A model generated the notes under the pieces. That model saw only the letters and a program-made list of their open reading frames with translations. It was not told where the DNA came from and made no database searches. Below are positions 5,784 through 46,352 of a DNA stretch of 64,000 nucleotides, one piece after another (within the stretch, counting starts at the first letter, position 1; every line of letters starts with the position of its first letter). The translations under genes were made by a program, and so were the position numbers. The stretch is from IMG/VR virus record IMGVR_UViG_3300037264_003623, positions 32,001 to 96,000 of that record; one strand, 5' to 3'. Source of the DNA: a virus.

Positions 5784-6335
5784 ATGAAGAAGTGCCCGGT
5801 GTGTGGCAAGGACAAGAGCGAGTTCGAGATGCGGCCCCTGGTGAATGTCGAGGAGCTGGCGGTCGGGGACGCAATGAGCGACCAGGACTCGAAGCAGGAC
5901 GTGGGCGGGGCGAAGGTCCACGTCGTCTGCCGGTCGTGCTGGCTCGCCCTCCTGGATGGCAAGTCCAAGGCCGAGATCATGGAGCTCCTGGAGACGATCT
6001 GCGGCATCCTCTTCGAGGTCGCGAGGGAGAGGCGGGAGAAGGGTCTCTGGGCCGAGCCCGCCGTCCTGATCGAGAAGATGAGTACGTTTCCCCATCCCAT
6101 CATGCCCATGCTCGCCGTAAGCCCGTGCTGCCCCACGCTCATTCCTTTTCCTGGATCGACCGGGGATATCCAGATTTCCGACGGGACCCACCGAGGCAAC
6201 TTCCTCATCAATAACATCTCGGAATCGGGGGTGGGAAACAACATGTCCATCAGGAATCTCGCCGCCCAGTGGGGCGATATGATGTTCGAGTCAGACGACG
6301 GGGAGGCGTGGTCCTCCAACAAGAAGTCGAGGTAG
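5784..6335 (+). CDS. zinc-finger hypothetical protein
   Basis: CPVC...CRSC; GGAGG RBS. Confidence 0.6.
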   Translation: MKKCPVCGKDKSEFEMRPLVNVEELAVGDAMSDQDSKQDVGGAKVHVVCRSCWLALLDGKSKAEIMELLETICGILFEVARERREKGLWAEPAVLIEKMSTFPHPIMPMLAVSPCCPTLIPFPGSTGDIQISDGTHRGNFLINNISESGVGNNMSIRNLAAQWGDMMFESDDGEAWSSNKKSR

Positions 6336-6337
6336 GC

Positions 6338-7693
6338 ATGGCCGAGCCGAAGGAATGGAAACCTGTTCTCAGGGAGGCGTTCCACCCGCCGCACGCGCAG
6401 GACGAGCTGGCCCTGGTGGAGCTGGGCGTCCCCTTCCACGAGCAGCGGTCGTTCGAGAAGCAGGTCCCGAGCTGGCGCTGGCCCCTGTGGGGGGTCGCCA
6501 TCGAGGAGATCGTCGGGAAGGAAGGCTCTGGGTGGAAGAGGGGGAAGACGATCGGGCTGTACGGGGAGAGGCCCCCCGTGTTCGCCCCGGTCGATGTGGC
6601 CCTGGGCAAGACCAGGATGGTCTCCGGGGAGCTGGCTGGGGTCGTCTCCTACAAGGACGCTAAGGGGAACCCGCAGAAGTTCGTCATGGTCGTGGAGCCT
6701 CAGTTCAAGACTGTCAAGGTCGCCCTCATGGGGAAGGCGGACCAGACGCAAGACGCGGAGCGCCTGTTCTCCGAGATTGCGAAGTGGACCGCGGAGCACA
6801 ACTTCTACAAGGGACAGAAGATCGACGCGACGGGGAAGTTCCTCGACCTTTCCGACATCGAGGAGGCCGACCTGATCTTGGCCGAGAAGACCAAGCACGA
6901 CATCTTCTTCAACGTCAAGACCATGGTGGAGAGGTGGAGCGACTACGCGCAGTACGGCATTGCCGCGAAGCGCGGGGTCATCTTGAGCGGGCCACCTGGG
7001 TGCGGTAAGTCCATGTCCCTCAAGGTGTTGGCGAAATCCCTTCCCTGCACATTCGTGTGGGCGACGCCTATGCACGTCATGAAGGCGGATGGGTTCGTCG
7101 ACATCTACGACTTGGCGAGGGAGCTCGCGCCCACGGTCGTGCTCCTGGAGGACGTGGACGTGTACGGGCTGGATCGGCGGCTCGCCGGGACCAACCCGCT
7201 CCTGGGGGACCTCCTCAACTCGATGGATGGGCTGGTCGAGAATAAGGGTGTGGTGACCATCGCGTCGAGCAACTATGCCGAGGTTCTCGACACCGCCCTC
7301 ACCAACAGACCGGGTCGGTTCGATGTGCGGGTCGCCGTCGGATATCCCGGGCCTAAGGAGGCCGAGGCCATCATTCGCAGGTCGCTGGAGAAGCGGAAGG
7401 TCGCCTTCAAGGGCGATCCAGGGGAGATCGTCAAGCTCTCGGGTGCCCTCTCCAACGTCTCGGCCAGCGGAGCGCACGTCGCCGAGGCGGTGAACTTCGC
7501 TATGATGCTGGCTGTCGAACGTGGGCGCGGGCGCGGCGGTCGCTTGTCCGTGGATGCGACGGACCTCCAGGATGCGGTCCAGCGGATCGTGGCGGATCTC
7601 GGCCAGAACGACGCGACCGAGAAGTCCATCGTCCAGGAGAACGTCCTGAAGTGGGGCAACTGGGCTAAGGACTTGTGGAAGTCGAGGAGGTGA
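6338..7693 (+). CDS. AAA+ ATPase
   Basis: Walker A GPPGCGKS, Walker B VLLEDVD, SRH LDTALTNRPGRFD. Confidence 0.92.
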   Translation: MAEPKEWKPVLREAFHPPHAQDELALVELGVPFHEQRSFEKQVPSWRWPLWGVAIEEIVGKEGSGWKRGKTIGLYGERPPVFAPVDVALGKTRMVSGELAGVVSYKDAKGNPQKFVMVVEPQFKTVKVALMGKADQTQDAERLFSEIAKWTAEHNFYKGQKIDATGKFLDLSDIEEADLILAEKTKHDIFFNVKTMVERWSDYAQYGIAAKRGVILSGPPGCGKSMSLKVLAKSLPCTFVWATPMHVMKADGFVDIYDLARELAPTVVLLEDVDVYGLDRRLAGTNPLLGDLLNSMDGLVENKGVVTIASSNYAEVLDTALTNRPGRFDVRVAVGYPGPKEAEAIIRRSLEKRKVAFKGDPGEIVKLSGALSNVSASGAHVAEAVNFAMMLAVERGRGRGGRLSVDATDLQDAVQRIVADLGQNDATEKSIVQENVLKWGNWAKDLWKSRR

Positions 7694-23580: not shown

Positions 23581-24093
23581 ATGGTCGAGTACACCCACAA
23601 GTCGGCGGTCCTGTCCGAGGACGGGAAGTACCGGTACGTGTTGCGTCGCCAGTGGTCGATGTGCGATGCGACCCAGTTCTTCACCCCCGTCTTCATATGC
23701 TTAAATCCTTCGACCGCCGACGAATCGGTGGACGACCCGACCGTCCGCAGGTGCGTGGGGTTCGCGAAGGCGTGGGGCTGGTGTGAGGTGACCATCCTGA
23801 ACCTCTTCGCCCTGCGCTGCACCGACCCGAGGGGCCTGGTCGGCCATCCCGATCCTCGTGGCCCCGAGAACGAGAAACACCTCCTGGAGTTCGGAAAGTT
23901 CAACCAGGCGATCGCGTGCTGGGGCGTCGGTGGGGCGCTGATGGGAGAGGGGAAGAGGGTAAGCCAGATGCTCGCGTTCCACGGGTGCGAGCTTCTGCAC
24001 CTCGGGCTGACGAAGGATGGGTATCCCAGGCACCCGCTGTATCTCCCATCCTCGGCGAGGCCGGTCTCGTGGGTGTGGCGAAGGAGGATTTGA
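23581..24093 (+). CDS. DUF1643 family protein
   Basis: YRYVLRRQW, LNPSTADESVDDPTVRRC, NLFALR.TDP, LGLTKDGYPRHPLY. Confidence 0.9.
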   Translation: MVEYTHKSAVLSEDGKYRYVLRRQWSMCDATQFFTPVFICLNPSTADESVDDPTVRRCVGFAKAWGWCEVTILNLFALRCTDPRGLVGHPDPRGPENEKHLLEFGKFNQAIACWGVGGALMGEGKRVSQMLAFHGCELLHLGLTKDGYPRHPLYLPSSARPVSWVWRRRI

Positions 24094-24578
24094 TGGACAG
24101 CTACGGTGACACGATGAAGCACATCGGCAGGGTGAGGGAGATCCTGTCGATCGTGGCGGAGAGGCTGAAGAATAGGGGAGTGGGCCACGACCGGTCCAAG
24201 CTGGAGTCTCCGGAGAAGGATGTCCTCGACGAGTTCACCCCGAAGCTGGCTGGGTCCGAGTACGGGGGCGAGGAGTACAAGGGCTTCCTCAAGGCGATGA
24301 AGCCTGCCCTGGACCACCACTACGCGGAGAGCCCTCACCACCCGGAACATTACCCGAACGGAATCAACGACATGACCCTGATCGATCTGGTGGAGATGAT
24401 GGCGGACTGGGCCGCCGCGTCAGAAAGACACCAGAGCGGAAGTGTGGCACGGTCGGTCGAGGTGAACCGGAAACGGTTCGGGCTAACGGACCAGCTTGCC
24501 ACCATCTTCCTCAACACCTACAGGGAACTGGGACTGCTTCCGAAACCGAACGATGCTGGCGCACAAGTCAAGGAATAG
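24093..24578 (+). CDS. DUF5662-like (HD-like) protein with replacement C-terminus
   Basis: HDRSKL, HHY...HHPEH, EMMADW. Confidence 0.75.
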   Translation: MDSYGDTMKHIGRVREILSIVAERLKNRGVGHDRSKLESPEKDVLDEFTPKLAGSEYGGEEYKGFLKAMKPALDHHYAESPHHPEHYPNGINDMTLIDLVEMMADWAAASERHQSGSVARSVEVNRKRFGLTDQLATIFLNTYRELGLLPKPNDAGAQVKE

Positions 24579-25268
24579 CGGCTCATGAATCTTATTCTTC
24601 ATGACATTCACGATCGAGCAGACGAACTGGAAGTTGCCGATCTCGTACCCGAGCCCGGAATCTATCCTATCAATGGACGGGCGGTACGGGGATGCCTTGT
24701 CCACGATCATCGTGATGCCGGACAGGGCGCAGATTCCTCCCTGGAGGAGGAACTGATGGTCGAGATCCTCCTTTGTCAGATTCCACTCGTGGCCCCGGCG
24801 TGCGGCGCTGAACTTCCAGGCGAAGATCAATCGTCCCGCAAAGTTCTCGGAGCCGGTCCAGTTCGCGGTTCGACCGCCGTGCATCTTCATGACGGCGTGG
24901 CGAACGCACCGGGGGCACAGATTCCGGTCGAACACCTTCTTTCCGTGCTGGGGCGTATTCCTGATCAGATGCTTGCCGCAATCTTCGCAGGTGTACTCGA
25001 TCAGAACGGTTCGGTCCCTGGAGGCGAAGCAGGAGCGGCACCACGACGAAAGACCGTCGCTGGAGCGAGAGTTCTTCGTAAACGACGCGGCGGGTCTCAT
25101 GACCCCGCAATGACTGCATGTCTTGGACTTTACCAAGCGCGGCGGTTGTCTCTGCGCCTCGACTTGGCACCGGTGCGAGCAGTAGACGCGGGTGTGGCAC
25201 CTCGGATGGAAGACTTCTTTGCATGTGGGACAGATGATCGACGTGAGGTGATGATAGATTCGGGCCAT
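24483..25268 (-). CDS. HNH/His-Me homing endonuclease (SxDRID type)
   Basis: Zn ribbons; CALSG..PSIDRIDSGLGYEIGN...VN; AAGGAGG RBS; TTGCCT-16-TATAAT at 25326-25299. Confidence 0.85.
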   Translation of the reverse strand: MARIYHHLTSIICPTCKEVFHPRCHTRVYCSHRCQVEAQRQPPRLVKSKTCSHCGVMRPAASFTKNSRSSDGLSSWCRSCFASRDRTVLIEYTCEDCGKHLIRNTPQHGKKVFDRNLCPRCVRHAVMKMHGGRTANWTGSENFAGRLIFAWKFSAARRGHEWNLTKEDLDHQFLLQGGICALSGITMIVDKASPYRPSIDRIDSGLGYEIGNFQFVCSIVNVMKNKIHEPLFLDLCASIVRFRKQSQFPVGVEEDGGKLVR

Positions 25269-25328
25269 GCTTCCTCCTTGTTAAAAGTTCCTATCTCTAT
25301 TATACCTGATAGCAGCTACAAGGCAATA

Positions 25329-25463
25329 GCGTCAGAAAGGCACATCACGGGGGATGTGCTCAAGAGCATCGAGATCAACACGAAGCGGTTCTCGATCTCT
25401 CCCCAGCTCGCGGCGATTCTGGTGAACACGGTGAGGGAGATATGGCCGAAGAAGGAGGGGTAG
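25329..25463 (+). pseudogene. displaced original 3' end of the DUF5662-like gene
   Basis: ASERHITGDVLKSIEINTKRF..QLAAILVNT vs ASERHQSGSVARSVEVNRKRF..QLATIFLNT. Confidence 0.85.
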
Positions 25464-25700
25464 ATGCCGATTCTCAGCATCGAGATCACCTGCTTGAAGA
25501 CGCGGTGCGAGGGGTGCTACCACTGCCACTATGGGAAGGAGCGCAGGCTTGTCCCGGACATCACCTGTTCTCTCTTCGGTAGGGCGCTCCAGGCCCCGGG
25601 CGGGAGCCCGCTGCGCCTGAAGCAGTGCGTAGCGGCGGAGGCAAGGGCGCACCTTACCGAGACGGCGCGTAAGGCCCTGGCGATGTGCGGGGTGGTGTGA
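25464..25700 (+). CDS. Cys-rich hypothetical protein
   Basis: TAGATG coupling. Confidence 0.6.
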   Translation: MPILSIEITCLKTRCEGCYHCHYGKERRLVPDITCSLFGRALQAPGGSPLRLKQCVAAEARAHLTETARKALAMCGVV

Positions 25701-30904: not shown

Positions 30905-31583
30905 ATGTTGGAGTGGCGTAATGGCTAACGCACCGGACTCAGGATCCGGGTCCGAAAGGACACCTGTGGGTTCGACTCCCACCTCCGACATTAAAGACTT
31001 GGCAGACTCATAGGAACGGGTTATAATATGTCGTCCAAGTAGGAGGACGACAGATGAGAAGGGAAGAGGATCTGCGAAGGGTGGTTTCCGAGTGCGTGTC
31101 TTTTGCCCAGGTTCTTCGACGTTTGGGATTGAAGCAGGCTGGCGGAAGTCAGAGCGAGTTGAAGAAGAGGGTGGAGGCGCTCGGGATAAGCACAAGTCAT
31201 TTCCTTGGCAGGAGGACGAACTCGGGGGCGCACCATCGCGGCGGGTGCCCCAAGAAGGCTTGCTCGGAGGTATTGGTTCGTAGCGTGAGGCGGCATCCCT
31301 ACCTTCTTCGCCGGGCCTTGCTCGAATCGGGGAGGGAGTACCGCTGCCAAGGAGACGGTTGCCCGGTAAGGGATGAATGGCTTGGGAAGAAGATCGTCTT
31401 GCAGGTGGATCACGTTGATGGAGACAGGAGCAACAATAGGGCTTCCAACCTTCGATTCCTTTGCCCCAACTGTCATTCGCAGACAGGCAACTGGGGAAAG
31501 AACGAAGGGGGAACGGATCTGACCACTAACGCGAGGCAGTGCCAGAACTGGAGACGGAAACGCCGGGAAGCATCGGGCACGGT
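30905..31583 (+). mobile_element. tRNA plus HNH cassette inserted in a tRNA-Leu anticodon loop
   Basis: Flanked by complementary tRNA halves. Confidence 0.8.
30907..30990 (+). tRNA. tRNA-Leu(CAG) nested in the insertion
   Basis: GTTGGAG/CTCCGAC-A; CCGGA-CTCAGGA-TCCGG. Confidence 0.9.
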
Positions 31584-45178: not shown

Positions 45179-45580
45179 ATGGGCTGGTTGTTCATGTTCG
45201 AGATGGCGACCCGCAAGGCGATGATCGCCGATCGGATCGCCCCCCAGGAATGGGTGAACCCGGACGGGACCAAGTGCTCCCAAACGACCCTCGCCCACAC
45301 GTTCAAGGGGTCCCCCTTCGCGGGGGTCCTCTACTACGTGCGCGAGACCCGGATCGGCGAGAAGACCGATCGGTTCATCCAGATCGACCTCCTCAGGTAC
45401 TCCAAGACAGACGGCCCCGGGTGCTGGGGCTACAAGGACATGACAGAAGAATGCGGACCAAACCACGTATCATGCCCCCGCAGTTATTTGGGCATGGTTC
45501 CTTGCCCTGACAATCAGATCGCAAGAGCATGGCGGGGTAGAGTATTGGCATGGCATGATGAAAGATACAAAATTACTTGA
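45179..45580 (+). CDS. DUF6927-like protein with replacement C-terminus
   Basis: MGW start; WGYKDM.E..GP...CP. Confidence 0.7.
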   Translation: MGWLFMFEMATRKAMIADRIAPQEWVNPDGTKCSQTTLAHTFKGSPFAGVLYYVRETRIGEKTDRFIQIDLLRYSKTDGPGCWGYKDMTEECGPNHVSCPRSYLGMVPCPDNQIARAWRGRVLAWHDERYKIT

Positions 45581-45612
45581 CAGCGGGGGGAATGATTTTG
45601 TATCCTAAACAC

Positions 45613-46197
45613 ATGAAAACAAAAACATGTAGCCGATGCGGCAGGAACCTTCCGGCCACAGAGGAATTTTTCTTCAGAAAAAGCAAGAGGACCGGCTGGT
45701 TGTCGGGGTGCCGGGACTGCCGAAGAGTTTTGTCGAGGGATGCTTATCGCAATCGCAACAGAATCAATCACGGAAGGCTGCAAAAACTGGAGGAGCTTAG
45801 AGTCTGGAGGAGCAAGTACGGCCTCCGGAAAAAGGCGGCACAGAGGTCACATGACCCAATCGGTTATTATGCGTCTGTCATGTTCAATTCTTCTTACAGG
45901 GCATCTCTTCGTAAGAAGATACCGCATACCATTACCAGGGCATGGATCCGGCAACAGTTAGACAAGGGGATATGCTCGGCAACTGGGCTACATTTTAGAT
46001 TTCCGAAACCAGAGGAAGGGAACCTTATAGGGCGGGATCCTTACCGGCCTTCACTTGACAGAATAGACAACACCAAGGGGTACACCCCGGATAATAGCAG
46101 AGTAGTTCTTTGGTGGTACAACGTCGCCAAGGGGCCTTGGTCGGACGAAGAGATGCTGGTCTTGGCGGAGGCGGTAGTCCGTTACGTAAGACGATGA
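45613..46197 (+). CDS. HNH/His-Me homing endonuclease (SxDRID type)
   Basis: KTCSRCG Zn ribbon; PSLDRIDNTKGYTPDN..YN; lower GC; TTGACA-18-TATCCT promoter. Confidence 0.85.
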   Translation: MKTKTCSRCGRNLPATEEFFFRKSKRTGWLSGCRDCRRVLSRDAYRNRNRINHGRLQKLEELRVWRSKYGLRKKAAQRSHDPIGYYASVMFNSSYRASLRKKIPHTITRAWIRQQLDKGICSATGLHFRFPKPEEGNLIGRDPYRPSLDRIDNTKGYTPDNSRVVLWWYNVAKGPWSDEEMLVLAEAVVRYVRR

Positions 46198-46352
46198 TGG
46201 GGCCCTGCTACTACGGGTGCCCCCTCAAGTACCTGGAGATGGTGCCCTGCCCGGACAGTCAGTACGCCCGCGAGTGGCGGGAGGTGGTGAAGCGGTGGTG
46301 GGCGGTCCAGCGGGAGCGGAGGCAGGAGCGCAAGGCGAGGCAATCGGCGTGA
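46194..46352 (+). pseudogene. displaced original 3' end of the DUF6927-like gene
   Basis: MGPCYYGCPLKYLEMVPCPDSQYAREWR vs CGPNHVSCPRSYLGMVPCPDNQIARAWR. Confidence 0.85.

Follow-up and report, generated by a model that had tools for sequence, protein, structure and literature searches.

In a 64,000-nucleotide (nt) stretch of DNA from an uncultured phage (hereafter, the window; bases 32001-96000 of the 109,083-base IMG/VR virus record IMGVR_UViG_3300037264_003623, which is about 75% complete), we identified a 912-nt cassette inside a gene of the DUF5662 family, and we consider it likely that a free-standing homing-endonuclease cassette invaded this gene at the codons for Asp-Trp-Lys-Ala-Ala-Ser-Glu-Arg-His. 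The cassette contains a foreign DUF5662 3' end (24417/24432-24578; coordinates are those of the window), a convergent gene for a putative endonuclease, and the probable promoter and ribosome-binding site of the latter. The comparisons presented here show that the DUF5662 gene is a hybrid, native over its 5' two-thirds and foreign in the last third, and that the original last third persists downstream as an unexpressed remnant.

A cassette between two versions of a gene end

The cassette is flanked by a 15-mer, GCGTCAGAAAG(A/G)CAC, that occurs at 24417-24431 and, 912 nt away, at 25329-25343, the two copies being identical in 14 of the 15 positions. With one mismatch allowed, these are the only matches in the 64-kb window, and none of 100 shuffles contained two matches. 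The original prediction, made by a model that saw only the DNA letters and the open reading frames (ORFs), held that both copies continue into homologous C-terminal peptides, and indeed the peptides read in frame from the two 15-mers (ASERHQSGSV... and ASERHITGDV...) share 22 of 40 residues (55%, E 1e-16), the DNA of the two tails past the 15-mer being ~60% identical.

The hybrid gene (24093-24578, plus strand) encodes a protein of 161 amino acids (aa) that matches Pfam PF18907 over residues 4-135 (E 1e-32; 113 bits against a cut-off of 27). Its native 5' part extends to ~24410-24431 and is followed, in frame, by the foreign replacement 3' end, tail A (24432-24578, plus strand), so that the upstream 15-mer (24417-24431, plus strand) marks the left junction or the crossover zone. 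On the opposite strand lies the gene for the putative homing endonuclease (24483-25268, minus strand; 261 aa), a free-standing, HNH-like and probably endonuclease VII-derived protein, the last ~30 codons of which are antisense to tail A. The AT-rich leader of this gene (25269-25328, minus strand), which includes the ribosome-binding site AAGGAGG and the sigma-70-like promoter match TTGCCT-16-TATAAT (25326-25299), forms the right end of the cassette. The G+C fraction (GC) is 0.485 over 25200-25399, at this right edge, and 0.535-0.545 in the adjoining intervals; at the left edge of the insert, it is 0.53, and in the flanks, 0.60-0.69. An inverted SxDRID endonuclease with a promoter of its own had been predicted between the repeats, and the minus-strand frame with its PSIDRIDS motif is there; the promoter is plausible rather than proven, the sigma-70-like match being the sole one in 1.9 kb, with 0.7 expected from shuffles.

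Tail B (25329-25463, plus strand), the native DUF5662 3' end, opens with the downstream 15-mer and persists as a 44-codon stretch that lacks a start codon and contains the ribosome-binding site of the next gene. The ATG of that gene, which encodes a 78-aa Cys-rich protein (25464-25700, plus strand), abuts the TAG of the remnant (25461-25463), in agreement with the predicted coupling (TAGATG) of the downstream copy to its neighbor.

An empty allele and the ancestry of the two tails

The DUF5662 gene is intact in L168, a 122-kb IMG/VR contig that encodes the relative P0003 and, to judge from its alignment with the window, carries an empty allele. Positions 6001-6338 of L168 align with 24093-24430 of the window at 78.4% identity (blastn), that is, the alignment to the upstream part stops inside the upstream 15-mer, and positions 6325-6444 align with 25329-25448 at 75.8% identity (blastn), the two L168 segments overlapping by the repeat; tail A has no blastn match to L168. 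Calculated over 45-nt intervals, the identity to L168 is 0.80-0.87 up to ~24428 and 0.44-0.58 beyond, which puts the switch at 24415-24431. L168 thus has an empty allele that matches the downstream copy, which makes this copy the native end and 24432-24578 foreign. A search for empty alleles had been suggested as a test of the original prediction, with a match to the upstream copy counting against it; the one that we found matches the downstream copy and not the upstream one.

The relatives of the gene support the same assignment. In the first 108 residues, the closest among 120 DUF5662 relatives are P0002, P0003, P0004, P0006 and P0013 (67-76%), and these end in ..LWPKEGG or ..LWPRKEG, which resembles the ..IWPKKEG of the downstream copy. 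The similarity of these five relatives to the downstream copy is 0.49-0.60 versus 0.34-0.49 to the in-frame tail, with the outcome unchanged when 209 DUF5662 sequences were compared; for the six relatives closest by the 5' part, the averages are 0.53 for tail B and 0.38 for tail A. Among the 209 sequences, the best match of tail A is L022, an endonuclease-linked allele that is 71% identical in nucleotides to window positions 24380-24635, across tail A and the end of the endonuclease gene. With tail B thus resembling the endings of the closest 5'-part relatives and tail A being closest to an endonuclease-linked allele, the prediction that the downstream copy is the original one holds.

Over the first 26 codons of tail A and its counterpart in L022, the proportion of nonsynonymous differences (pN) is 0.14 and that of synonymous differences (pS) is 0.92; the low pN compared to pS indicates that the replacement tail is under purifying selection as a maintained coding sequence. 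An AlphaFold2 (AF2) model of the hybrid DUF5662 protein has a predicted local distance difference test score (pLDDT) of 92, and its two tail helices continue confidently through the foreign tail. When the remnant is compared with L168, the ratio of nonsynonymous to synonymous substitution rates (dN/dS) is ~0.8 versus 0.36 for the 5' part (a small sample, with 29 changes), and these values would fit a dead remnant.

A second hybrid with the same breakpoint

The DUF5662 gene of L022 is an independent hybrid. Its 5' part is closest to that of L235, an endonuclease-free allele, with 75% DNA identity over the first ~345-350 nt of the gene and a drop beyond; the switch falls at the DW codons, past which L022 is nearer to tail A of the window than to L235. 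The window and L022 hence share a breakpoint on different DUF5662 backgrounds, which indicates that related cassettes, each consisting of a tail and an endonuclease, were joined at the same codon. The L022 gene converges on an endonuclease frame that is reduced to its last ~50 codons, from NIQFVCSVVNVMKNK on, so that the cassette is decayed in L022, whereas in the window it is intact and accompanied by the native remnant. The region L022:3486-4298, with a window-like foreign tail and no native remnant, has the appearance of a decayed stage of a window-type cassette. The empty allele, the foreign tail and the L022 hybrid all favor homing by 3'-end replacement, as originally suggested.

Association of the endonuclease family with the DUF5662 3' end

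The genomic context of the endonuclease family was read for the relatives on JGI and IMG/VR contigs. There are 9 distinct loci in which a family member adjoins the 3' end of a DUF5662 gene, and both orientations occur: in six loci (L010/L088, L011, L012, L015, L017 and L090), the endonuclease gene has the same orientation as the DUF5662 gene and begins 11-33 nt past the stop codon, or 197 nt past it in L011, and in the window, L020/L089 and L022, the two genes are convergent. A member of the family was found near none of the 82 other DUF5662 genes. In a tree of the DUF5662 5' part with 208 leaves, the endonuclease-linked alleles are scattered, and their last common ancestor spans 180 of these leaves. 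The contact between the two genes extends to the proteins: the C-termini of P0122 and P0123 are an antisense reading of the DUF5662 tail (..ILxNT..), and P0131 and P0146 read through into the DUF5662 tail in sense.

Two further loci, L008 (65-960) and L014 (7-540), contain a P0129-type endonuclease gene followed by an orphan DUF5662 tail fragment (..RFKLDEQLVALLTNTAKAF..) in sense; neither has a DUF5662 gene before the endonuclease, and the upstream gene in L008 is not DUF5662. In L009 (2156-4417), a family member with 40% identity is located between a recA-like gene and thyX, indicating that the family also occupies other sites.

Loss of a conserved Lys codon at the candidate target

The point of insertion lies in a DUF5662 family motif, D-W-K-A-A-[STG]-x-R-H, in which 112 of 119 proteins have the Lys, compared with none of the 9 endonuclease-linked alleles, which have A, V, Q, L, V, Q, R, R and I instead; in every linked allele, TGG is followed by a codon other than AAG. 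The 119 proteins are DUF5662 family members from a search that found 666 relatives; they were used as the control because the loci L168-L247 had been selected in part with the peptide DWKAASER and are biased, the Lys frequency in these loci being set aside. In the other alleles, the most conserved DNA block is TGGAAGGC, these being loci selected in part with DWKAASER, and GAYTGGAAGGCNGC is the most conserved block among loci with the same partial selection. D105 and W106 are invariant in DUF5662, which places the site in a constrained motif; homing targets are usually found in such motifs.

Given that every endonuclease-linked allele has lost the Lys codon, TGG-AAG-GC is probably the critical part of the target and could belong to the recognition or cleavage site, the candidate DUF5662 target bearing ...GACTGGAAGGCNGCGTCAGAAAGGCAC... 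The changed Lys codon would then protect the endonuclease-bearing genomes. In the hybrid copy of the window, this candidate immunity change is GCC (Ala; 24411-24413, plus strand) in place of the AAG (Lys) of DWKAA, with new sequence 3' of the 15-mer in addition, and in the remnant copy, promoter DNA replaces the 5' half of the site. Both copies being altered, neither is a full native site. The proposed alteration of the target in the hybrid is thus borne out, with the refinement that the Trp and Lys codons immediately preceding ASERH seem to form its critical part.

Nine DUF5662 alleles (L219, L226, L229, L201, L225, L243, L174, L176 and L195) have no endonuclease and yet lack the Lys of DWK. 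Some of these carry KRH for ERH, as do several of the linked alleles; they may be resistant sites left after the loss of the endonuclease. The change from DWK to DWx would provide a simple annotation marker of past DUF5662 invasion. The locus records the invasion nearly step by step: empty and filled sites, the replacement end of foreign origin and the native end that it displaced can all be seen, as can a decayed stage in L022 and a codon that is a candidate for an immunity change.

The putative endonuclease and its family

The 261-aa protein contains four CxxC pairs, with CxxC zinc ribbons in the N-terminal part, and the motif PSIDRIDS...GNFQFVCSIVNVMKNK. Among the PHROGs, it matches phrog_1035, annotated as 'endonuclease VII' (E 3e-26), and families annotated as 'HNH endonuclease'; in Pfam and NCBIfam, it matches no nuclease family, Endonuclease_7 of Pfam included. 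Searched against IMG/VR as a single query, it gave no match; at least 564 IMG/VR stretches match patterns of the IDRID family, and ~30 relatives have 38-65% identity to the window protein. In an alignment of 27 sequences of the family, D200, R201, N212, N221, K224 and N225 are strictly conserved. The invariant N221 and N225 belong to the motif ..VNVMKN.., where their match to the metal-ligand Asn of HNH enzymes is judged from the motif position only. The order of elements in LTKEDLD..Q.GICALSG...IDRID...GNFQFVC..VN.MKN is similar to that in endonuclease VII, ..CAICG...DHDH...RGLLC..CN..

The AF2 model of the protein (pLDDT 87) has strands at 197-200 and 214-217, followed by a helix. The solved folds on top of the list of structural matches are HNH enzymes, namely PacI (Foldseek probability 0.99; VIA-align Z 7.2, root-mean-square deviation (rmsd) 6.4, 105 residues aligned), as well as Hpy99I, Cap5 and the HNH domain of Cas9, with Gme HNH (Z 4.8) and T4 endonuclease VII (Z 3.8) further down. 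A sequence search of the solved structures returned zinc ribbons only, apart from a weak PacI match (E 0.15). We suggest that the protein is a His-less derivative of the endonuclease VII/HNH fold, the cleavage activity of which we infer from genomic behavior alone. Two more specific assignments were rejected: that of a canonical HNH enzyme, given that the family has no conserved His, and that of a DHHRN (F-CphI) enzyme, both His being absent despite the PHROG 'endonuclease VII' match. Cleavage by a member of this family would show whether the HNH/endonuclease VII fold works without His.

Proposed mechanism and alternative explanations

The invasion can be envisaged as follows. During co-infection, the endonuclease of a donor phage would have cut the recipient DUF5662 gene at or next to TGG-AAG-GC, and the left end of the break would have invaded the homologous gene of the donor. 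Repair synthesis would then have run through the 3' end of the donor DUF5662 gene and on through the convergent endonuclease gene, its promoter included, after which the new strand would have been connected to the right side of the break, starting at GCGTCAGAAAGGCAC. Every step of this scheme is inferred, the position of the cut and the making of the right junction included; at this junction, either the copied strand was joined without homology, or a relic tail of the donor, past the promoter, served as the right homology arm. A more far-reaching possibility, which we offer tentatively and regard as somewhat doubtful, is that the IDRID proteins, although they lack the His, still act in homing and represent a novel catalytic form of the endonuclease VII/HNH fold, and that the cassettes carry a working target 3' end plus, in the donor, the 3'-end relic of an earlier host. 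If so, both homology arms would lie inside one conserved gene, and the endonuclease gene would home between mosaic phages that share the target gene alone.

Several points weigh against the invasion by a homing endonuclease. On the side of the DNA, the right junction shows no clear microhomology, and L168, at ~77% identity, is the sole empty allele found, which makes the event undatable. When 160 further loci of the endonuclease family were screened flank against flank, no flanking duplications emerged, the matches being of low complexity only, which makes the remnant an uncommon outcome. The hexamer AAGGCA (window 25320-25328), 3 nt before the downstream 15-mer, equals the expected native Lys-Ala codons, shifted by ATA, and on the opposite strand its bases double as the -35 box of the endonuclease promoter; it may be either a scar of the native codons or a chance match. 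On the side of the protein, there is no match to the Pfam HNH family, the 27-sequence alignment contains no invariant or near-invariant His, IDRID (P-S-I-D-R-I-D) takes the place of the DHxH of endonuclease VII and HNH enzymes, and the zinc-site Cys are partly lost. The Z values of the fold matches are middling (the best is 7.2) and in the range of common arrangements.

The absence of a catalytic His would be expected if the HNH-like gene were a passenger (a moron) that cuts nothing and was carried along by ordinary mosaic recombination within a short stretch of conservation; the phages compared here are mosaic, L168 and L235 each having no more than scattered genes in common with its partner, and the conserved 15-nt stretch could itself guide illegitimate recombination. 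We nevertheless find such an origin improbable, given that the same breakpoint occurs in two unrelated backgrounds, that 9 loci have the family at this particular gene end, in both orientations, that the Lys codon is gone from every linked allele, and that the residues listed above, from D200 to N225, are strictly conserved. The six collinear loci, where the HNH-like gene comes after DUF5662 at a distance of 11-33 nt (197 nt in the case of L011), could also suggest that DUF5662 and the HNH-like protein work as partners, in which case the adjacency would reflect an operon rather than homing, and the duplication would be an unrelated accident. This we judge to be very unlikely: the gene is present beside none of the 82 other DUF5662 genes, both orientations occur, L022 retains only a stump, the L009 member resides between the recA-like gene and thyX, and the linked alleles are dispersed across the tree. 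Finally, a direct repeat and two homologous tails on one strand are also what a local tandem duplication of the gene 3' end would produce, followed by divergence of the copies and, afterwards, insertion of the endonuclease gene between them. We give this scenario hardly any credence because the DNA identity between tails A and B is only ~60%, lower than that of tail B with the empty allele (76%) and that of tail A with the L022 tail (71%); matching different relatives, the two tails differ in ancestry.

Comparison with known mobile elements

Invasion of the DUF5662 gene by a homing-endonuclease cassette has its closest counterpart in the mobile ORFs (mORFs) of fungal mitochondria that come with a foreign C-terminus, first reported in atp6 of Allomyces macrogynus and known also from atp6, atp9, cox2 and nad3 of Glomus sp., atp9 of Rhizopus and cox2 of Mortierella (PMC3630166 and its ref. 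48). As in these hybrids, the core of the gene is fused in frame to a foreign C-terminal part, followed by an endonuclease ORF and, downstream, by the native C-terminal part, and the native part groups with close relatives, whereas the inserted part groups with a distant lineage. The divergence between the copies is also comparable, with 63.5% DNA identity between the two copies in Glomus atp6 (PMC3630166) and ~60% in the window. The fungal mORFs encode LAGLIDADG or GIY-YIG enzymes, reside in organelle genomes, and usually have the same orientation as the host gene, often in phase with it; in the window, by contrast, the host is a phage, the enzyme is a putative HNH-like derivative of endonuclease VII, and its gene is convergent, with an antisense overlap with the new tail. 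The genomic hallmarks of homing endonucleases, namely patchy presence, filled and empty alleles, a sharp boundary and target-site differences, are observed here, and so are those of the mORF type, that is, a foreign C-terminal part, an endonuclease ORF, a native C-terminal part and discordant ancestry. The arrangement matches the known fungal mORF type, the novelty being the phage host and the uncharacterized enzyme family; our literature searches found no phage precedent for the duplicated-end arrangement. By this route, endonuclease genes could spread among phages with one shared gene and reshuffle the ends of conserved proteins, as the fungal mitochondrial mORFs do.

Among phages, the relevant precedent is intronless homing by the free-standing endonucleases SegF, SegG, SegB and MobE of T4, which cut endonuclease-less relatives and co-convert the flanks (PMC2988022, PMC2790892, PMC2330249). 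The window resembles these cases in that a free-standing endonuclease gene adjoins a conserved gene and the allele that bears it has target differences. In T4, homology extends on both sides, and the end of the target gene is not left in duplicate (PMC2988022), whereas the window has just one flank in common with the presumed donor and retains the remnant. The DHHRN homing endonucleases, such as F-CphI, keep the Asp, two His, Arg and Asn of T4 endonuclease VII (PMC6083498). Like F-CphI, the protein described here is a putative free-standing phage endonuclease with a catalytic domain that appears to be derived from endonuclease VII and is aimed at a conserved gene; unlike the DHHRN enzymes, its family has IDRID and no conserved His.

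A different class of mobile elements integrates at the 3' ends of tRNA or protein genes, carries a replacement 3' end in attP and uses an integrase. The similarity to the window is that an element-borne 3' end restores the gene, the native end is displaced to the far junction, and short direct repeats are present; unlike these elements, the 912-nt cassette encodes no integrase or recombinase.

Possible function of DUF5662 and other features of the window

The DUF5662 proteins have the invariant pattern H, HD, H, D. Compared with the solved structures, DUF5662 has no sequence match and no significant Foldseek match; VIA-align of the DUF5662 model places HD-GYP and HD domains on top, with Z 6.6 and 6.1 over 116-121 residues. 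The pattern and the structural model suggest, but do not establish, that DUF5662 is an HD-type phosphohydrolase. In the literature, we found no paper that mentions DUF5662.

Immediately 5' of the DUF5662 gene is a DUF1643 gene (23581-24093; phrog_3230, E 5e-37), the stop codon of which overlaps the DUF5662 ATG by one base (TGATG). The L168 DUF5662 gene has different neighbors, ~20 kb away in terms of the window, which indicates that the gene order is mosaic. The 78-aa Cys-rich protein encoded downstream of the remnant has no match in Pfam or PHROG. The window is GC-rich and contains nine tRNA genes, and a search of the GenBank phage collection found no close relative of this phage.

A second case of the same kind is found in the window at 45179-46352, where an ORF (45179-45580) precedes, in the same sense, the gene for a 206-aa endonuclease paralogue (45577-46197) with the motif PYRPSLDRIDNTKGY, and a fragment resembling the end of this ORF lies beyond the paralogue. 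The paralogue is distant from the endonuclease in the DUF5662 gene (28% identity, E 1e-14), and the two versions of the gene end that flank it, ..CPRSYLGMVPCPDNQ.. and ..CPLKYLEMVPCPDSQ.., are 58% identical over 33 residues. The flank-against-flank screen recovered both window cases, and remnant-leaving insertions seem to be unusually frequent in this genome. Elsewhere in the window, ARAGORN identifies a tRNA-Leu(CAG) gene at 30906-30991, and the ORF that starts from ~31055 contains a canonical VDHVDGD...NLRFLCPNCH motif, read by eye.

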